A stretch of DNA of 64,000 nucleotides from Octopus vulgaris (lineage: Eukaryota). Positions within the stretch are counted from its first letter, which is position 1; every line of letters starts with the position of its first letter. The notes under the pieces are model-generated. The model saw only the letters and a program-made list of their open reading frames with translations, did not search any database and was not told the origin of the DNA. The DNA lies in assembly GCA_951406725.2 (NCBI GenBank), contig OX597828.1:3472001-3536000 (forward strand), written 5' to 3'. The position numbers were made by a program, and so were the translations under genes. Below are positions 4,011-53,332 of the stretch, piece after piece.

Positions 4011-6097
<2,087 letters not shown>

Positions 6098-14030: not shown

Positions 14031-15110
14031 ATGCGTATCGCCTTCACCTTCGAAACGCAGAGTAGATGAAACCAAGGCGACTGAAGAAGGGGAATTTTCC
14101 TTGTATTACTTGTCCTGTACTCTATTTTTTTGTTGTTTAAGAAAAATGCTCAGTTCCTTGGTTTTGTGTTTATGTTTTCGTTTCTCATTGTGTTCGACGT
14201 TTTTTTTGGTGTCCTGTACCCATATATGCATGTATATATACATGTAGAGGTAGGTATTTACATATATGTATGTATATATGCATATGTTTTATTTATTAAT
14301 TTATTATATGACGGAACACACGCATCCATTTCTAAGTAAGATTGTTCTTGATATTAATAATGATGCGCACTCTTGACATTTTGTCCCCTCCCTTTCTCAG
14401 CCTTCATTCTTTCTGGTTTCCTTTTCTTCTACCTTACTGCCTCTCCCTCTCTCTCATTCTTCATTCTTTCTGGTTTCCTCACAACCATTCCCTGTTTTTC
14501 TCTCCCTTTCTCTCGCTCTTCCTCCTCTCTCCCGTCGTTGACCTGCGACGAGAGGTCTGATACTGTCTTTCTGGCCTGACTTCCTTGAAGTGTGGACGGC
14601 ATTTTCTGTTGCTCCTTCGCCGTTCTCAAAAATAACGTTTGTAATACTTTTTCTCGTTCGGCTTAACAGCCCTTCTTGTCTTGTTATTCTCCTTGTCCTG
14701 TCTTTTACTGTTTATATTTTGTACTGTCGTTACTGTTCTGTTGTTGTTACCATTTTTACCCCTCCGCAAAAAAATCTCAAATTTTATTTAATTTGGTTTT
14801 CGCGGGAAGGAAAGTTTCTATCGAAGATGCGTATCGCCTTCACCTTCGAAACGCAGAGTAAGTGAAACCATGGCGACTGAAGAAGGGGAATTTCCTTGTT
14901 TTATTTATCCAGTACTCTATTTTTTTGTTGTTTAAGAAAAAATGTCCAATTCCTTGGCTTTGTGTTTATGTTTTCGTTTCTCATTGTGTTCGACTTTTGT
15001 TTTTTGTGTCCTGTACGCATATATGCATGTATATATACATGTAGAGGTAGGTACGTACATACATGTATGTATGTATCTATGCATATGTTTTATTTATTAA
15101 TTTATTATAT
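14031..15110 (+). mobile_element. Element with ~280-bp terminal direct repeats (14031-14309 and 14827-15110), probably a Penelope-like partial tandem (pLTR)
   Basis: The direct repeat is visible. It has no TG..CA termini, the interior is pyrimidine-rich, and CGAAAC..GTA and CTGAAGA motifs occur in the repeat. Confidence 0.65.
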
Positions 15111-18532: not shown

Positions 18533-19044
18533 TATGACCTCCTCTCCCTCCTAGACCTCTCATCATCTCTCTTATACATATATATAAGGTTGTTTCACCT
18601 GAAATGTCGCATTTTTAATTACTTGTTATTTCATTTCAATCATTTAAAAACTCAATTATGTATACCTTTTTCAAAATTCGTACCCACAGACCTTATGAAA
18701 ATGATAACAATCAAACTATGTTGAGTGAGTTTCTCGTACGAGAAACTCACTCAACATAGTTTGATTGTTATCATTTTCATAAGGTCTGTGGGTACGAATT
18801 TTGAAAAAGGTATACATAATTGAGTTTTTAAATGATTGAAATGAAATAACAAGTAATTAAAAATGCGACATTTCAGGTGAAACAACCTTATATATATGTA
18901 TAAGAGAGATGATGAGAGGTCTAGGAGGGAGAGGGAGGTCATAGGGCGGCGAGCTGGCAGAAACGTTAGCGCGCCAGGCGATATGCTTAGCGGTATTTCG
19001 TCTGTCGTTACGTTCTGAGTTCAAATTCCGCCGAGGTCGACTTT
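18432..19044. repeat. Spacerless palindrome, ~306-bp arms
   Basis: Centre GTTTCTCGT|ACGAGAAAC at 18737/18738. Arms differ by one C indel, giving mirrored ORFs 18452+ and 18751-. Confidence 0.98.
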
Positions 19045-25795: not shown

Positions 25796-25817
25796 ACATT
25801 CATACATACATATATTA

Positions 25818-26026
25818 CTCTCTTTCTCTTTTACTTGTTTCAGTCATTTGACTGAGGCCATGCTGGAGCACCGCCTTTAGTCGAGTAAATCGACCCCAGG
25901 ACTTATTCTTTGTAAGCCTAGTACATATTCTATCGGTGTCTTTTGCCGAACTGCTAAGTTACGGGGACATGAACACACCAGCATCGGTTGTCAAGCGATG
26001 TTGGGAGGACAAACACAGGCACACAA

Positions 26027-26057
<31 letters not shown>

Positions 26058-26223
26058 CACCACAGGCTTCTTTCAGTTTCCGTCTACCAAATCCACTCAC
26101 AAGGCTTTGGTCGGCCCGAGGCCATAGTAGAAGACACTTGCCCAAATTGCCACGCAATGGGACAGAACCCGGAACCAGGTGGTTGGTAAGCAAGCTACTT
26201 ACCACACAGCCACTCCTGCGCCT
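25818..26223 (-). mobile_element. SINE family B, full length
   Basis: Highly similar to 2433-2883, with intact head (..CACAGCCACTCCTGCGCCT on +). Confidence 0.9.
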
Positions 26224-32369: not shown

Positions 32370-32750
32370 TATAGATAATAATATTGTTATTATTATCGAA
32401 AGGAATACAAATAGTTTATAACAACAGTTTTAATGGTTGCAGGCCAATATCAGCATTATATAGCCATAGAATTAGAATTACATTAATTAAAGGAAACATT
32501 AAATTGTCTATCCGCTGGAAATAAGAGTTAAATCCCTCATTCGGACCACTAAATATAGACATATATACCTGTTCCGTTAAATATATAACTTTATGCTATA
32601 TGTATATGCGAGAGATCTTTTGGTTCGCTTGCCCGAATACTGCTGAATCTGTTATTCTCAATGTAAATATTTTTTGGTAGTCCAAATGAGGGTTTTGACT
32701 GTTATTTCTAGCTAGTAAACAGTTTCATGTGTCTTTTGATTAATGTAATT

Positions 32751-33070
32751 ATACACGGTTATTCAAACAGAACGAATCGATTTCTTTACGCAATATTTTA
32801 ATAAGGAAAAGCGATAGAAAACTCTAGCAAAGTCACAAGTGTTTACTTACAATCAAATTTTATTTCCTCACGGGCAACATCAATACGATAAGGGAATCCC
32901 TCCCAGACGCCTATCAGCATATCATGATCCACTGATTTCATCGCTGTTGTTATTCGATGTTATAGGTCATCGAGGTTAGTGGGTAGCGGTGGAACATAAA
33001 CGCGATCTTTTACAAACCTCCACAAGAAAAGATCACATACGGTGAGGTCTGGGGATTTCGCAGGTCAAGC
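32751..33070 (-). mobile_element. Tc1/mariner 3' fragment, rosa/DD41D-like
   Basis: Minus-strand translation PAKSPDLTVCDLFLWRFVKDRVYVPPLPTNLDDL resembles the WP.RSPDLTP.DFFLWG..K..VY motif. Confidence 0.8.
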
Positions 33071-41663: not shown

Positions 41664-41809
<146 letters not shown>

Positions 41810-42021
41810 CAATAATAAATCTCTGAACGAGGTATAAACAGTAACTGCACGACAATGTAAGGTATACTAGCCATCTCAATATGGCTAACCACCAAGGGTG
41901 GGTGTTACTGTAGCTTGTAGCCCCAGGAGAACATCTCCTCCAGCTGGCTTTAAGCACACTTTCTGTGCTCTAAGGTATTTGCAAAGGGAGGTCACCCTTC
42001 CCTCGTCAACCTAAATGATAC

Positions 42022-42064
42022 GTACGGACTGCAGTTTCTAGGTATTGACCTGTCATTAGCGTAC
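42022..42064 (-). ncRNA. Second hammerhead copy with mutated core (CTAATGA), probably inactive
   Basis: Reverse complement is GTACG-CTAATGA-CAGGTCAATACCTA-GAAAC-TGCA-GTC-CGTAC. Confidence 0.6.
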
Positions 42065-42284
42065 GACAATCACCGGTTTTCGATGATAAAGTGTTCCAAT
42101 GCAAATCCTTATATATCGTTTTTCCAGTAACGATTCGTCACTGATCTCGATAAACTGCATGCAAGCAATAATAAATCTCTGAACGAGGTATAAACAGTAA
42201 CTGCACGACAATGTGAGGTATACTTGCCATCTCTTGCCAAGGATTTGCATTGGAAAACTTTTTCATTGAAAACCGGTGATTGTC

Positions 42285-42327
42285 GTACGCTGATGACAGG
42301 TCAAAACCTAGAAACTGCAGTCCGTGC
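42285..42327 (+). ncRNA. Minimal type I hammerhead ribozyme motif
   Basis: GTACG-CTGATGA-C-AGG-TCAAAA-CCT-A-GAAAC-TGCA-GTC-CGTGC: stem I GTACG/CGTGC, stem II AGG/CCT, palindromic stem III ACTGCAGT, GUC cleavage triplet. Confidence 0.75.
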
Positions 42328-42493
42328 GTATCACTTAGGTTGACGAGGGAAGGGTGACCTCCCTTTGCAAATACCATAAGGGCACAGAAAGTGTGCCTAA
42401 AGCCAGCTGGAGGAGATGTTCTCCTGGGGCTACAGGCTACAGTAACACCCACCCTTAGTGGTTAGCCATATTGAGATGGCAAGTATACCTCAC

Positions 42494-42536
<43 letters not shown>

Positions 42537-42899
42537 GTATGTATGTATGTATAGGCAAATATATGAATATATTCTTACATATATGTAGGTACGTGTACAA
42601 ATATGTATATGTAAATATATGTATATATATATATCCGTGTATAGGTATTTGTACTCCTTTCTGATTTTTGATCTACGCTGAACAAATATGCGGGGCATCT
42701 GACTTGGAAACGGGTTGCCTCTCTTTCTTTCTTTTTCTACCTTTCTCTTTCTCTCTCTTTCTCTCTCTCCCTCCCTCTCTCCCCCTCTCTCGCTCGACAG
42801 TCTCACCTCCACATTCTTTCTCCACCTAAAACCGCTCCGTTCTCGGCCTGGTCTCCAGCATAGGGCATATCTCGTACTACTTTTAGATAGAAGTGTGAC

Positions 42900-43995
42900 G
42901 CATTTTCTCTCTTAAAACCACACCCACCCATCTCTTGTTTTTCTTTATTTTCGCTTTCCTCAGCATCGCTAGAATTGCACACCGGTTGCCTTCTCTCTCG
43001 CTAACTAATATGTGCCCTTACTTTATTAGCATCCTCCCCACTACATAAATCTTACACCGCACCACCTCACAACCTCACACCTGTAGATTCACCCTCAAGA
43101 CATTTGCACAGCGTCCACATGCACACTAACACCTCATGTCAACTTTTTCACCTTCTATAATTTTCACTTGTGCATATACGCGTAGGTCATATACTCTCTA
43201 CTACCCATCCAACTTGTCCCTTTCACACACACATCGGTACGGTGAAAACAGCAGATCTACGTTCACCTACTGTTCACACATGCGCTCCACCACCAAAAAA
43301 GCACTCCCCAAACTGGCACTACGACGAGGGTTGCAGTTGATCCAATGAGCCGAACAGCCTGCTCATAAAATTAAAGTGCACGTGGCTAAGCATACCATAG
43401 ACACGCGAATTCTTAACGTAGTTCTCAGGTAGATTCTGCGTAATACAATGTGACAGGTACTACGCATTTTTGCCCACCGAGTAGACTGGAGCAACATAAA
43501 ATAAAGCGTCTTGTTCAAAGACACAACACGTTGCCGCTTTTAAAACTACCGACCTTACGATTGTGAGCCTAATAACCCTAACCAGTAAGCAATATGTTTT
43601 CACACACATGCGTACACTCAATGGAATTCTCATACATACGATCCTATACTCCACATATGTACGAATACATAGATACACAAAGGCAGATAGGCGGTCATAC
43701 GCAAACATACAATCACACACTCACTTACACACACCATTCTCCCTTCTACCTTGGTGCCTCTGCTTGACCTCTTCTTAATTTTTTAGTTTTCTAACCCAAT
43801 CCAATGCTTAGGATGCTTCTTCTGCTTCCCTCTCTTTATAGATAACTTTTTTTTCTTCCTCTCATGCTTCTTTTCTTTCTCTCTTTTGATGAAAGACTAA
43901 TGCCGAAAGGTTAAAATATTTTCTCCTTCCACTAAAGCGCTTAGCTAATAACCTATTTGTCAAATTTTACTTTTCCTGTGTTCTCCTTTAAAAGT
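42900..43995 (+). mobile_element. Highly decayed Penelope-like element (GIY-YIG remnant and terminal repeat)
   Basis: Frameshifted FTC..VIYSL..PTCP..HIGT at ~43163-43240. The tail at 43885-43995 resembles 47840-47955. Confidence 0.45.
43310..43610 (-). mobile_element. SINE family C
   Basis: Homologous to 11420-11712; a related tRNA-like head lies at 31987-32043 (+). Confidence 0.7.
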
Positions 43996-44209
43996 TTGTT
44001 GAACACACATACATATATACATACATACATAGATAAATACATACATACATACATACGTACATACACATACAAACTTACATACATACACATGCAAACTTAC
44101 ATGCATATGCGTGTATGTGTGTATCGTGTGTATTCGTGTATATGTATATATAAATGTATGTATATATAAGTATTTCTAGACATATGCATACGCCTAAATA
44201 TATACATAC

Positions 44210-44255
<46 letters not shown>

Positions 44256-44396
44256 ATATAATCGCACATATGCATATATATGTGCATACAGCATACATAG
44301 ACACACACTTACACACACAGACATATATATTTATATATGTACGCCTATATATTCAGATAGACATGTATAGAGAGAAAGAGAGAAAGTGAGAATGAA

Positions 44397-44449
<53 letters not shown>

Positions 44450-45368
44450 TATATATATATATATATATATATATCCACACACACAATACATACATATATA
44501 TATATCTATATATCTATATATGAATAGATACATATGCTGCGAATATCATTAATACGGAAGGAAAGAAGAAAATTATCAAGACAAAGTCTAAGCTATGTGA
44601 CATGCCTGTATCTGTGTAAAGACAAACGGCAAAAGCAGAAATGTCACGGACGACATTCTTTTAGCTTTAACAACCATGTAAAAGAGACAAACGCCAATTC
44701 GATCCTTTACTACACTTCCTTGCACATACGTGCTTAGTTTCAAATAAAATCAAGCAAAACTGCTGTTGTCTTCTTCGTATGGTTCTGTCTTTCTTCTACC
44801 GATATGCAGTCACGTGAAAGCAAGTTTTTCTTTCGGCACATTATGTAACTTTTATAATAAACAATATATGCAACAGACGCATGACGTCCATGCTTCTATT
44901 TTTCTTCTTGAAATACACAAACATAACTGTGTTCCTGTTTATATAACCACGTCCTTGTCTTATGCAACCACTCTTCCTCCCAGTCACACCCTACCCCGTG
45001 TTAGGTTGTCGTGATCATTAGAATCTTCATCCCAATTAAGAAAACTCCTCTCTTACCCTCTCATTGTTCTCGCAGACAAATATATTCAATTTGGCATAAT
45101 TCTCTTCCGCCTCCTCCGCATCCTTCTCCTGCTCCACCTCCTCCACTTCTTCCCACTACACTTCTACACGTCATCATCATCATCATCATCGTCGTTAACA
45201 CCAAAACGACGATCATCACCACCACCACCACCACCACCCCTAGCACCGTCACCATCAGCACTACCACTATCAATACCATCACCATCATCTTTGTCGTCGT
45301 CGACACTATGAAGAGAAATTTGAGTATTATTACCAATTCGATACCATCTCAATCAGTGTAGCATCTAT

Positions 45369-45369
<1 letters not shown>

Positions 45370-45423
<54 letters not shown>

Positions 45424-45564
45424 CAACAACAATAACGACAATGAGACAATAACAGCAACATTAACAGCAACACGACCAACAACAACGTCAACGACAATAA
45501 AAACAACAACGACAAGAAGAAGAAGAAGAAGAAGAAGAAGAAGAAGAAGAAGAAGAAGAAGAAG

Positions 45565-45599
<35 letters not shown>

Positions 45600-45768
45600 G
45601 AATAATAATAATAATGACAACAACAACAGTAATATAAACAACCAGAGGAACACGGCCAACAACATCAGCAACAACATCGACAACAAAAATAACAGCAACG
45701 GCAACAATAGCAATGATGATGATGATGAGGAGGAGGATGAATATGATGATGATCATAATAATAATAAT
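45370..45768. repeat. (AAT)n/(AAC)n/(AAG)n/(GAT)n compound trinucleotide tract
   Basis: Directly visible. Confidence 0.95.
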
Positions 45769-46416
45769 CCCCTTCATCGGCACCACACCATTTTCAACAT
45801 CACTGTGATTGTACCTTTCAATTGAAGTCGTCACCATCATCACGAGACTTCTTAATCTTAACAAACTTGTTATTTCTATTCTCATCGTGTTTGCAGGCAT
45901 GTATCAATTTAACGCCGTTTTCATTAAGAAAAAAAAAGTAAGACGTTTTTTTTATTTATATTTGTTAGAGAGAAACATGGAAGTTAGCAATACTAAGATG
46001 TTAGTTCAGTGCTATCCCTGAAATATCGTGAGGAAATTGCAAATACGTATATCGCTTCAGTGAGGTTATAAGGAAACTTGAGGGGAAGATTGGATGTGAT
46101 AGACAGTTAGGTGAACCATTCATTACTGTTTAATGAGCATTCTCGTTTTTTCCATTGTCACTTCAAGTGTAAATATTTTCTCGATTTGTATGAAATATAT
46201 AAAAGACAAATAAAACACAGGACAGTAAATGATGTAGGTTTCCAATAGTTATATTTTACAAAAAGGCATACAAAGATGTGTTTAAAGTTTTGAGTGTTCT
46301 AGTCCTCCATGTTTTATCATCCTTCGCTATATTTCTCTTTTATGTTTTCTTCATATTGTTCAGTATGGTTGAGCTTAATTTCTAATGCAAACACAACAGG
46401 AAAATACGTATATGTA

Positions 46417-46483
<67 letters not shown>

Positions 46484-46525
46484 GTACATATATGTATATA
46501 TATGCATATATATACATATATACAT

Positions 46526-46588
<63 letters not shown>

Positions 46589-46664
46589 ATAATAATATTA
46601 GGGAGTAAATCCAAACTTACAGGGAAAAATTAGATTTAGGATTAAATCTAATTTTATAGTATAA

Positions 46665-46972
46665 ATATATATTATATTGAATTAGAGATAAAACCACTAT
46701 TAGGCAAATCAAACAGTGAAAATCATAAACCAATACATAGAAATAAAATTAATTAAAAAAATATATAAAAAATATAAAATATATATAAAATTCCAAATTA
46801 AAATTAAAATTAAAATTAAAAATTAAAATTAAAATTTAATTTGGAATCTTATATATATTTTATATTTTTTATATATATTTTTATTTAATTTTATTTCTAT
46901 GTATTGGCTTACGATTTTCACTGTTTGATTTGCCTAATAGTGGTTTTATCTCTAATTTAATATAATATATAT
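46665..46972. repeat. AT-rich inverted repeat, ~138-bp arms around an (AAAATT)n spacer
   Basis: ATTAGAGATAAAACCACTATTAGGCAAATCAAACAGTGAAAATC versus GATTTTCACTGTTTGATTTGCCTAATAGTGGTTTTATCTCTAAT. The left flank is related to 28895-28970 (-). Confidence 0.9.
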
Positions 46973-47099
46973 ATATATCTGAGCCATCATCAGACTGCCG
47001 AAACGTCGAAGTTACTGTCAATAGCATTCTTATATGGTAATAATAAATTTGTAGTCTACAAAAGTATGGAGCAACCCATCGGATTAATGTAATGGTTAA

Positions 47100-47195
47100 A
47101 AGAATAAAAGAGTAGGACCAGTTAATTATGATTTCATTCAATTTATTCCTCTCTCAGATTCACACACTGATTGCAGCGGCTTGTCAGTTTTTTAA
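47100..47195 (-). mobile_element. mariner 3'-end remnant
   Basis: Minus strand reads KLTSRCNQCVNLREE*IE*, like the mariner C-terminus RW.KCV...G.YVE. Confidence 0.5.
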
Positions 47196-47774
47196 ACACA
47201 TGTATAGAGAGGCATCTCAACATATATTCATATGCATACTCACACATGCAAACATAACCTTACTTATATATAGAACCATGTACACACTCGTAAGGATGGT
47301 GCAGTTACACATGCACTCAGTAAACCTTAGCCGAATTTGTAATTGGTAATTCTTAATTGTATTCACCTGATGAAAATGTTTCCTATGGTATTTTCTTCTT
47401 TTTCTTTTGCAATGGTGGAACATTCCTGTTCATCAATACAGCTGTAGCGAACTACCATCCATCTGTTGCTATTATCATTCTTCATCTAACTCGGAACCTT
47501 CAATTTGCTTTGATCTGGTGTCTATAGACGCCGGTGCAATAGATGCAGTTAGTCTATCCATGTATGACTTAGATGAGACGTTGTGTATTAAGTCATCCAC
47601 TTACGAATGGACGCGTAACTGGAGGAACAAATCCGTATTTGCATTAGCAAGTACGCATTTGCCGCTATATATTGTTTGTACACAATCACACTATCCCTTG
47701 GTGTTTCAATATTTAAATACCTTGTTCTCTCAAAACCCGGAAATTTATATATATATATATATATATATATAAAT

Positions 47775-47953
47775 GGTGGACCGCTGAAATCTACGAGTTT
47801 TTTTTTCATTCTCTCTTTGTTTATTTTCTCATTTCTTTCTGTTGAAGAGCGTAGACTCGAAACGTAAAAGACTTTTTCATTTTCTCGAGTGTCAAACTCA
47901 TACACTTGCTTGTTCATACACCTGTCTTCGTCTTTTGTTTTTCTAAAAATTTC

Positions 47954-47958
<5 letters not shown>
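47775..47958 (+). mobile_element. Solo Penelope-like terminal repeat within a (TA)n tract
   Basis: TA-flanked; contains hammerhead-like TTGAAGA-GCGTAGACTC-GAAAC-GTA-AAAGA. Confidence 0.45.
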
Positions 47959-48002
<44 letters not shown>

Positions 48003-48274
48003 CATACATACATACATACATACATACATACATACATACATACATACATACATACATACATACATACATACATACATACACACATACATACATACAAAGT
48101 TCTTTGGGGTTCTCGAAATGCAGATAAATCTATAAACGATAACATATACATGCGTGTTAGTATTTATATTTTAAAATGTACTTGGAAACTCTGTTCCAAA
48201 GAAGAAATATTTCACGTTCTATCAAAAGATTATCATTACTTATGACGGTAACAATTTACATATATACATATGTT

Positions 48275-48486
48275 CTTTTATTCACGATTTAATTGCAACC
48301 GTGCTGGAGCACCGCCTTAAATGGTTTGAGTCGAAGGAATCGACGTCAGGTCTTATTCTTCGTAAACACAGTACTTTTACAATCGGCGTCTTTTTTGAAC
48401 CGCTAGTTATGGGGACATAAACACACCACCATCGGTTTTCAAGTGATGGGGGAAGAGACACAAAGACACACACTCACACACACACA

Positions 48487-48524
<38 letters not shown>

Positions 48525-48680
48525 GACAGGCTTCTTTCAGTTTCCGTCTACTAAATTCACTCACAAGGGTTTAGCCAGCCCGAGGTTATAGTAGAAGACA
48601 TTTGTCCAAGGTGCTACGCAGTGACACTGAACCCAGAACCATGTACTTGGGAACCAAGCTTCTTGCTACGCAGCCACTCA
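48275..48680 (-). mobile_element. SINE family B
   Basis: GCTGGAGCACCGCCTT..GGCTTCTTTCAGTTTCCGTCTAC..CAGCCACTC. Confidence 0.85.
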
Positions 48681-49451
48681 CACATAAAAAAAAACATTAG
48701 AATATTTTGATAGAAAAAGTTGACTTTTTCTGTTGAAAGCAGTTTTTCAATCCAGAGTATGTGTCCTTAGTTATAACTCTATGCACTGTGGTTCGAGAAT
48801 CAAGATTCCAAAACGAATTGTTTCGCGTTCTCTCGAACGTTTACACACGCACACACAAACACACACACGCAAACGCACACGCACACAAACATATATAGTG
48901 AATATGTGTGAGTGTGGTGCTGGTGTGTCTATATAGTTTGAGCTTCGACTATTAATTTCCTATTGAGAAACGTAAGGCCACCGTTAATGGAGAAAGCGTA
49001 GAGCTAGGTTTTGCAAGTTGTGATGGTTCAAATTCATGAAAACGATAATTAGACTATAAATACCATTTCTCCCATTAAATAATAAAATTTTTTATTTAAC
49101 TTCTAAACTGATCATTTACTACGTAATATATATGCATGTGCATAAGGACACAGTCGCACACATGCATTCACGCATATGCATTCACATACACGTACATACA
49201 TACGCACACACCCATATACAGTGTCCCAAAAACATTATGTACAAGTGTATAACGAAATATATATGTATATGTTTGTGTTTGTGCGTGTGCGCGCGCGTTT
49301 GTAACTGTGATTACATCCATGTTATCTGAAGCAGTCCCTTATAGATAGAAATATCGTAAATTCTAGTTATTTAATTATAAATGTATAAAATAACCGTTTT
49401 TTCGTGGAAATCAAACTCGCATACAGACATTCATTATTATATAGTGTGAAT

Positions 49452-49513
<62 letters not shown>

Positions 49514-49559
49514 CTCAATAAATGGTGGGGTTGTGTTGACCGCACGTGGAGAAATGATA

Positions 49560-50219
49560 AGCAAGGAGAAATTGTAAAAATGCAGAATGCTCAAACGAAA
49601 GAAAATTTTAATGAAATGAGAAATTGATAAAATATATAAATATATATTTATTCAACCGGTTTCCGTCATTGTATGACTTGTCAAGAATATTTAGGTTTAA
49701 AAAGTTTTTTTAAAAATGAGAAAGGGGAAAAAAGAAAATTGCATTGTTTTTTGCAAAAGAATAATAGTAAAAATGTACAAAAATTAAAAAATAAGTACTC
49801 CGATACATTGTGAGTTCGTTGTGTATCTTGAGCTTAATGATTGTTCACGAAAAAATTACCTTGAGGTATTAGGATCCAATGGGATTAAGAGCATGTGTTG
49901 TTTGGTTTAATTGAGGATGTTGGCAAAACAGGAAGTAGTAGTAATTACTACTACTTCGAACGAACTCACAATGTATCGGAGTACTTATTTTTTAATTTTT
50001 GTACATTTTTACTATTATTCTTTTGCAAAAAACAATGCAATTTTCTTTTTTCCCCTTTCTAATTTAAAAAAAACAACTTTTTAAACCTAAATATTCTTGA
50101 CAAGTCATACAATGACGAACCGGTTGAATAAATATATATTTATATATTTTATCAATTTCTCATTTCATTAAAATTTTCTTTCGTTTGAGCATTCTGCATT
50201 TTTATAATTTTTCCTTGCT
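49560..50219. mobile_element. Penelope-like inverted-repeat element, ~261-bp arms (49560-49820, 49959-50219)
   Basis: Near-identical inverted arms, each with a hammerhead-like motif followed by AATAAA; TA-rich flanks. Confidence 0.8.
50092..50130 (+). ncRNA. Minimal hammerhead-like motif, U3-A8 variant (mirror copy at 49649-49689, minus strand)
   Basis: TATTC-TTGACAA-GTCA-TACAA-TGAC-GAAC-CG-GTT-GAATA; the mirror copy has GGAAAC in place of GAAC. Confidence 0.6.
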
Positions 50220-50555
50220 ATATATATACATATATATATATGCGCGCGTGTGTGTGTGTAAAATATGTTTTAAGGGACACCATTTATTGGTGAAGGTGGG
50301 TGACTTACTTTCTTGTGTAGTTACGAAGTGAAAATTATGTATGGGTAAAAATAAGGAAATTATTATTCTTATCGTTGGTTTCCTCGCATGTAATCGACCT
50401 GTTTTAACCAATCACATGACCCTACTAAGCTTTCAGAAGATTAATGTAGCAGCTTTCTATGTTCATGTAGAATTGGCTGAGGAAAGATTTTGTTAGGTTT
50501 CCAGCCTGTTTGTGTGTATATATAAATATAAATATAAATATAAATATAAATATAA

Positions 50556-52449: not shown

Positions 52450-53332
52450 TGTAGTATGATCGATCAGTAGCTGACCTGTTGCCATAGTAACAAAGCTAAA
52501 GCACACACAGTGACGACTCTTGGCACAGATTGACCTTGAACTCTACTGCGCATGTGCGCTAAGTTTTAACGTTCTAGCTTACTTTCGCTATTTACGGCAC
52601 TGCTTGGAAATAACGTGTGTAATATGTGATCATCGCATTGATCATGACGGAGAAAATTGAAAAGAGAATTTGCATCACATTTTGCCAAATGCTTGGTGAT
52701 ACCTGTTCAGAGGCCTACACAAAGTTTTCAAAATGTTTTCATCGTTCTTGACACAATGAAGGAGATCTTGTGCAAAAGAAGTCCGAGTGTCGTTTTGGCC
52801 AACTGAAAGCAGTTTTGGCACAAACTAGGCAGACACGCGTCTCATACCCAAATCTTCAGCGATCATGAACTGAATTGGACCGTAATTAATCTGCACATCC
52901 TCTTATAACTCACAGATGGTAATTCGACGAATTACCATCTCAGTTGCACGCACATCTGCGATGTTTTTTCTCAGTTTTGCTGGCTGCAGGTCTCCCAGAA
53001 CGTTCGTCAATATCGACAATTTTTCGGCTGCCTTGGAAGCGTCTGAACCACTTGTACACCTGTGTACGACTCATACACTCTTCTCCATACACTTTTTGTA
53101 ACTTTACGTAGGCCTCTGAGCAGTTATCGCCATGACAACTTTTCTGTCATGGTCAATGCGACGATTACACGTTACACACCTTCCTTCCAAGTCCTGCTGT
53201 AAACAGCGGAAGTGAGCTAGAACGTTAAAACATAGTGGGCATGTATAACAGAGGTCAAGGTTAATCTGTGCCAAGCGGCATTACTCTGCGGGCTTTAGCT
53301 TCATTGCTATGGCAATAGTTCATATACTTATT
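52450..53332 (-). mobile_element. Non-autonomous mariner derivative with two 5' ends (long inverted arms)
   Basis: 52450-52730 is an inverted, diverged copy of 53095-53332. The minus strand encodes a transposase N-terminus (LQKVYGEECMSRTQVYKWFRRF..DERSGRP..RRITI..DLGMRRVSA*FVPKLL). Confidence 0.85.

Follow-up and report, generated by a model that had tools for sequence, protein, structure and literature searches.

The window analysed here is a stretch of 64,000 nucleotides from Octopus vulgaris (contig OX597828.1, positions 3,472,001 to 3,536,000 of the forward strand). It contains an inverted element with a hammerhead-shaped motif in each arm, flanked on both sides by (TA)n runs. The main features are as follows, in window coordinates.

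4016-4996 and 5366-5875 (+): non-LTR (LINE-type) reverse transcriptase (RT) frame, followed by a fragment downstream; its best match among features is RVT_1, eukaryotic
41808-42496: unrelated inverted element of the same geometry, with (TA)n flanks and a one-sided tail of about 46 nt
49477..49510: (TA)n run, the left target flank, with (CA)n before it
49511..49559 (-): tail of about 49 nt at the 3' end of the element, AC-rich on the sense strand, not present in the inverted arm
49560..49820 (-): left arm, the 3' region (pseudo-LTR-like) of the sense copy
49649..49689 (-): left type I motif, U3-A8 core, palindromic helix III; cut predicted between 49654 and 49653
49821..49946 (-): family sequence lying further 5' in the sense copy, 5'-truncated near 49946
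49932..49957: perfect 26-bp palindrome with the centre AATT, at the inversion joint
49959..50219 (+): right arm, an inverted copy, more strongly 5'-truncated and without the tail
50092..50130 (+): right type I motif, U3-A8 core, one A of GAAA gone; cut predicted between 50125 and 50126
50220..50241: (TA)n run, the right target flank

The inverted arms, 49560-49820 and 49959-50219, are 261 bp long each; their identity is 96.6%, with 5 substitutions and two 2-nt indels between them. The first-pass annotation had described arms of about this length, each with a U3-A8 hammerhead core overlapping an AATAAA, and both are present as described. It had also given 49560..50219 as the extent of the element; the arms do lie there, but the element is wider and begins near 49511, and the 138-bp 'spacer' between the arms consists mostly of further family sequence, as revealed by contigs of the family.

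These contigs come from four sequencing runs (X1, X3, X5 and X8). The tail continues into the left arm from 49520 in X3, X5 and X8, positions 49511-49519 lying under a repeat mask. Contigs span 49753-49946 in X1 and 49696-49946 in X8, and behind 49946 the loose ends of X3, X5 and X8 pass into other sequence. The sense copy occupies 49511-49946 on the minus strand and is 5'-truncated; the unit is at least 435 nt long without a repeat and continues beyond 49946. No direct repeat of the element (tandem pseudo-LTRs) was found in the window, such a repeat being optional in truncated copies, and no contig of the four runs covers the whole locus.

At the inversion joint, the 11 nt after the central AATT mirror the 11 nt before it, and the DNA folded over 49900-49990 forms a hairpin at the joint with an MFE of -11.7 kcal/mol (z -3.1). 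We infer that the right half of the palindrome is a fold-back copy lying outside the family sequence. The inversion is made anew at each insertion, since an X8 contig has a different joint, leading from 49801 to 49988. Approximately 170 nt upstream of the motif, positions 49855-49862 (-) read AAG/GTAA and resemble a 5' splice site; a pyrimidine-rich, AG-free stretch follows, and a convincing acceptor was not found there by eye. In Penelope-like elements (PLEs), an intron ending near helix I is possible.

The unrelated element at 41808-42496, located 7 kb from the U3-A8 element, comprises a 356-bp unit, which is a retrozyme-like size, and the 71-bp start of the next unit, followed by the inverted arm. 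It carries a hammerhead-shaped motif with a C3-G8 core at 42290 (+), the left-arm copy of which has lost G5. The window also contains a perfect 394-bp palindrome with no spacer (18541-18934), situated between copies of a SINE-like repeat, which is either an artefact of assembly or a fold-back insertion of very recent date. Two older inverted pairs, 52463-52656 / 53140-53331 and 32473-32553 / 32673-32753, show 78-79% identity, and no hammerhead motif was found in them with the descriptor given below. The SINE-like repeat is dispersed (2430-2883, 25816-26217, 48299-48679 and others), and we take it to resemble the octopus OK SINE. At 14031-14309 / 14827-15110, two direct copies of about 280 bp share 92% identity and lie 800 bp apart.

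Hammerhead-shaped motifs and their family

In each arm the core reads UUGACAA, helices I and II have 5 bp each, and helix II is closed by G10.1-C11.1. The helix III palindrome, ACCGGU, forms only 2 bp and a CG loop. In the left motif, helix I is formed by 49689-49685 paired with 49653-49649, with U3 at 49684, A8 at 49679 and A9 at 49678; helix II occupies 49677-49665, GGAAA begins at 49664, and U17 is at 49654. In the right motif, helix I pairs 50092-50096 with 50126-50130, the core is 50097-50103 (U3 at 50097, A8 at 50102), helix II occupies 50104-50116, GAA begins at 50117, and U17 is at 50125. The AATAAA starts at 49652 (-) and 50127 (+), within the 3' strand of helix I. The cores of the two motifs lie 433 bp apart, and the predicted cut is about 140 nt from the end of the tail, placing the motif near the 3' end of the element.

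GUU, proposed earlier as the NUH cleavage triplet, was read in both arms. The GAAA strand had been considered damaged in both of them. This holds for the right arm, where one A is lost, but not for the left one, which retains a full GAAA after one extra G; one of the 2-nt indels separates the arms at this strand. An alternative register with a C3 core was rejected by inspection, as it requires two indels and places G at position 17. The ATG in helix II, likewise by inspection, starts no more than short frames in the two arms.

A descriptor that accepts C3-G8 as well as U3-A8, written post hoc after the motif had been seen, matched three places in the window: the two arm motifs and the C3-G8 motif at 42290. 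When it was run on 100 block-shuffled windows, 3 contained a match, and of 5000 shuffled versions of the 447-nt element 1 did. Rfam gave zero matches in the window at the gathering score; a search of 41700-50400 up to E 5 returned 101 matches, none to a hammerhead family, the weak ones being microsatellite-driven miRNA models. The neighbouring C3-G8 motif was missed too, so the Rfam models do not cover such minimal forms.

Part of the sequence was present in 20 of 24 listed public run rows, from 9 studies; no listed run is recorded as RNA, and the list has no bearing on expression. Contigs were placed on the window in numbers of 807 (X1), 663 (X3), 336 (X5) and 18 (X8). The runs X1, X3 and X5 are DNA-like or untyped and bear three organism labels, while X8 is guessed to be RNA. 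The depth of the core relative to the unique right flank was roughly 2,400x in X1 and 3,900x in X3, values too rough to serve as a copy number. Mean depths around the two cores were 47,280 and 51,026 in X1, 52,541 and 15,955 in X3, and 6,100 and 37 in X5. The element belongs to a high-copy family.

The first-pass annotation had taken the U3-A8 pair to be a property of the family and had named a CUGACGA consensus as the result that would speak against it. Any contig of the C3-G8 form would show T>C at 49679 or 50097, depending on the arm, and no place with T>C at 5% of depth or more was found in X1, X3 or X5. In this pre-set check the family contigs displayed no CUGACGA consensus, and with no C3-G8 form at 5% or more of the depth, U3-A8 is confirmed as a family property and not a copy-specific deamination. 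The Watson-Crick 3-8 pair is present in both arms and family-wide.

Rows describing loose ends of contigs agree with this at position 3. Nine of the 24 rows examined (24 of 178) reach that position, and two of them were dropped for low agreement. The remaining seven, representing 14 contigs and at least two subfamilies by upstream sequence, all have U. Position 7 (N7) varies between C and U, as a free position should, with U in two of the seven rows, and position 8 is reached by two loose-end rows, one with A and one with G. A minority of single revertants is possible, as one A>G row per DNA run is among 9 rows outside those examined.

That the double change reflects selection for activity does not follow from these data. 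The family is young, and conservation among its copies is therefore no proof of selection. At 49596, 49766, 49767 and 49797 both arms depart in the same way from the majority of the family, which indicates a common source copy, so that the arms do not count as two independent observations. Over 49520-49946 the copy is a few percent diverged, with at least 9 listed places unlike the family majority.

The GAAA region is less accessible in the contigs, because the repeat mask cuts them at 49657 and 50122. The depth beside the mask, expressed in positions' worth, was 7.4 in X3, 8.5 in X5, 9.3 in X8 and 3.3 in X1; 8 would be expected if contigs stop at the extra G (a GAAA parent) and 14 for a GGAAA parent. 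This depth arithmetic hints weakly that most contigs stop at the extra G of the left arm. A GAAAA parent is disfavoured within the limits set by the repeat mask, as the 6 C>T places of X3 have all been assigned elsewhere.

A 20-nt pattern, used to look for the family elsewhere, matched 17 loci, of which 12 lie in metagenome contigs and the other 5 in genomes of prokaryotes. All are attributed to chance, because none resembles the element beyond the pattern itself. A second pattern gave 0 matches in viral contigs.

Predicted folding and activity

In the parent of the family, which would have carried U3-A8 in place of the C3-G8 pair, helix III would be built by two copies of the motif in one tandem transcript, joined through ACCGGU. 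Dimer pairing is proposed because a single helix III is limited to 2 bp closed by a CG loop, and by analogy with other PLE hammerheads (PMC4209133). Cleavage of such an RNA after GUU would be weak and would probably be helped by a protein. On balance, measurable cleavage by the parent RNA is slightly favoured.

The double hammerhead lies 3.0-3.2 kcal/mol above the predicted dimer minimum, a misfold whose palindrome is lengthened to 8 bp by A14 and U17. With the C3-G8 motif at 42290 nearby, the double hammerhead is itself the predicted dimer minimum, at -26.7 kcal/mol. Within the isolated 435-nt sense unit, helix I has a probability of 0.0 and is predicted to be outcompeted.

At the locus itself, the read-through RNAs of the two strands were predicted to fold at -415.8 and -391.3 kcal/mol, with a helix II probability of 0.0. 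In these models the read-through RNA would be one 261-bp hairpin in which both motifs are buried, a source of dsRNA and not a ribozyme. The locus should not cleave, because the core is fully paired in the predicted hairpin. It is probably inactive, since the arms would pair into a long hairpin and the right arm is without an A of GAAA.

The earlier statement that U3-A8 is a tolerated compensation holds or fails with the context. Natural U3-A8 cases are on record (PMC3088659, PMC4209133); in deep mutagenesis of one type III hammerhead, only the G3-C8 swap rescued activity and U-A did not (PMC9901934).

These observations bear on whether the motif does anything in the family. It may be a fossil in an otherwise PLE-derived element, U3 and A8 having spread passively from a master copy or having been kept only for pairing, with no selection for activity. 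Such an explanation concerns function only and is compatible with the insertion model given below. An Anolis PLE inserts in vitro despite mutations in the catalytic positions of its hammerhead (PMC11167929, in part), and the Naiad PLEs spread without canonical hammerheads, as far as the available text of PMC8557442 describes them. The active form is disfavoured in the predicted folds, G8A falls in a CpG, and at a divergence of a few percent conservation is expected without selection. However, C3U is not a CpG change, the two changes together restore a Watson-Crick pair, and G10.1-C11.1, both helices, the palindrome and UH are intact. Moreover, U3-A8 recurs in Schistosoma PLE families, with U3-G8 in Saccoglossus (PMC4209133, in the part available), and the U3-A8 form was reported active in vitro in earlier work cited in the accessible text of PMC3088659. 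A fossil motif is thus a serious possibility, although we consider it somewhat doubtful.

One loose end of X8 (record 27), compared by eye over 49667-49696, disagrees with the window at 7 of the 30 positions; at five of these seven an A of the ribozyme strand reads G, and A8 and A9 are among the five. The part containing A8 and A9 is a single contig with a depth of 2.96, the same one, judging by record lengths, that has the joint 49801 to 49988. This gives a weak hint of A-to-I editing of a hairpin RNA. A diverged genomic copy would explain it equally well. X8 is only guessed to be RNA and has no matched DNA, the row was picked after it had been seen, and single contigs under a depth of 5 carry a warning from the tool. 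Furthermore, X8 shows no T>C over 11 T positions in 49696-49717, where uniform hyper-editing should be visible. A broader scheme can be outlined, which we regard as very doubtful: a U3-A8 family with thousands of copies, probably of octopus, whose own inverted insertions would supply dsRNA edited A-to-I by the host at A8 and A9. A U-A core could then be switched off by editing, whereas a C-G core could not at position 8. If true, it would link host RNA editing to the control of a retroelement ribozyme, a link on which the literature search gave nothing related.

Proposed insertion route and alternative origins

It is likely that the locus is a single dead-on-arrival insertion of the 3' end of a PLE, or of a non-coding derivative moved by a PLE, from a high-copy family whose U3-A8 motif works, if at all, only as a dimer. 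The features of the PLE type present here are the inverted 5'-truncated partner, the one-sided tail, the palindrome at the junction and the hammerhead motif near the 3' end. No RT or GIY-YIG open reading frame was found: 9 short frames, among the 21 of at least 30 aa around the element, gave no Pfam match above the cut-off. PLE membership is nonetheless likely and is argued from architecture, not from an open reading frame.

All these features are described for PLEs in the available parts of several papers. An inverted 5'-truncated partner and a one-sided tail of 30-40 bp are known (Craig et al. 2021, PMC8557442). Palindromes at inverted junctions have been read as self-priming, Arkhipova et al. 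2013 favouring self-priming on the antisense template (PMC3846280). The tail has been explained as the distance between two RT start sites, and targets are AT-rich (Frangieh et al. 2024, PMC11167929). Opposite-strand hammerhead pairs lie 100-700 bp apart in PLEs, a range that includes the 433 bp found here (PMC4209133). In comparison with the EN+ PLE insertions as presented in PMC3846280, PMC8557442 and PMC11167929, the truncation, the inverted copy, the tail, the palindrome and the (TA)n or AT-rich target are the same, but the tail is 49 nt instead of 30-40, and this copy has neither an ORF nor a tandem pseudo-LTR.

In the proposed route, the PLE endonuclease would nick the (TA)n run, and reverse transcription would proceed from the tail end (49511) and stop near 49946. 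The AATT end of the cDNA would then fold back and copy 11 nt of itself, after which it would jump by about 110 nt and copy back to 49560, giving an inverted arm without the tail. A route in which each of the target strands primes a cDNA of its own, with two start sites, would fit as well and is not separable from fold-back; the literature search returned no relevant paper on twin priming in Penelope. The helix III palindrome might also act as a dimerisation signal, joining two templates for priming from both strands. This would fit the geometry, but Naiads invert in the same manner without hammerheads (PMC8557442, in the part available) and fold-back already explains the joint, so that the idea is quite improbable.

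Another origin to be considered is a non-LTR retrozyme, that is, a short tandem unit with an active hammerhead spreading through circular RNA. No ORF was found in this element, the neighbouring element has a 356-bp tandem unit, and animal retrozymes, for which an origin from PLE pseudo-LTRs has been proposed, contain hammerheads of type I (bioRxiv 10.64898/2026.07.22.740005). On the other hand, the unit of at least 435 nt, continuing past 49946, exceeds circles of 170-400 nt, a tandem copy is absent here, and the motif is of the minimal PLE type with no loop-loop signature seen. We consider this origin improbable.

The inversion could in principle be a fold-back chimera created during library preparation or assembly, as the junction palindrome is perfect, no contig spans the locus, and a perfect 394-bp palindrome occurs elsewhere in the window. 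However, the arms differ by 5 substitutions and 2 indels, the family base at 49568 is found in the right arm and not in the left one, and the tail and the (TA)n flanks fit a biological origin, which makes such an artefact very unlikely. Least tenable is a MITE or fold-back DNA transposon with long terminal inverted repeats at TA and a chance motif: it would account for the long near-perfect arms, the short non-coding interior and the TA flanks, but is largely refuted, since family contigs that begin in the left arm cross the 'spacer' and pass into other sequence, not into the right arm, so that terminal inverted repeats are not fixed parts of the family unit, and the tail is one-sided, another copy inverts elsewhere, and the motif is rare in shuffles.

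Relation to known hammerheads

As a probable PLE insertion, the element has close counterparts in which the same core has already been described. Perreault et al. 2011 described hammerheads in nature that covary to U3-A8 (PMC3088659); the 3/8 covariation is the same here, but it lies in a minimal, putatively dimer-type motif of an animal retroelement. Cervera and de la Pena 2014 recorded about 1,300 U3-A8 motifs in Schistosoma by homology with a Cercyon PLE, motifs that their own descriptor had missed (PMC4209133, in the part available). The first-pass remark that searches restricted to CUGANGA would miss this core agrees with their account.

Among the 56 representative PLE hammerheads of that source (PMC4209133, available part), two are U3-A8, from Schistosoma PLE families, and one is U3-G8, from Saccoglossus. 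An extra base between A9 and G10.1 is present in 54 of the 56 rows, the other two being C3-G8 with palindromic loops, and one GAAA cell reads AGAAA. The octopus motif has no such extra base, and the combination of U3-A8 with this layout occurs in 0 of the 56. The mollusc rows (Lottia, Crassostrea) are C3-G8, and no cephalopod is among the 56. The similarity to the minimal type I form of the Cercyon PLE of Schistosoma mansoni extends to U3-A8, helix I of 4-5 bp, G10.1-C11.1, the palindromic helix III, the U-rich 5' and AU-rich 3' flanks and the high copy number; the Marsupenaeus PLE hammerhead has the same layout, without a base after A9 and with a CG palindromic loop (PMC4209133, as above). 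The Octopus Naiad PLEs share the (TA)n preference and the inverted architecture with a tail, but are without canonical hammerheads in the available text (PMC8557442). Six short motifs of the element gave 0 matches in the accessible Naiad supplement (PMC8557442), where line breaks or divergence could hide one.

No published octopus hammerhead family was found by title and the start of the abstract, and Lunse et al. 2017 may hold closer examples; dimer cleavage of PLE hammerheads is reportedly treated there. A U3-A8 core is said to be active in vitro, by earlier work to which Perreault et al. 2011 refer.

U3-A8 hammerheads in animal PLEs are already known, and the octopus family is one more case of a known sort. 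It adds an animal lineage and a layout, with no base after A9 and a CG palindromic loop, to the U3-A8 PLE hammerheads, which is of modest weight. Entire high-copy families can be overlooked in searches with CUGANGA descriptors or with Rfam, as this case shows. Should the consensus dimer cleave while the single revertants stay uncut, nature would have supplied in this family a clean way of testing the 3-8 pair of a minimal hammerhead of the dimer type.
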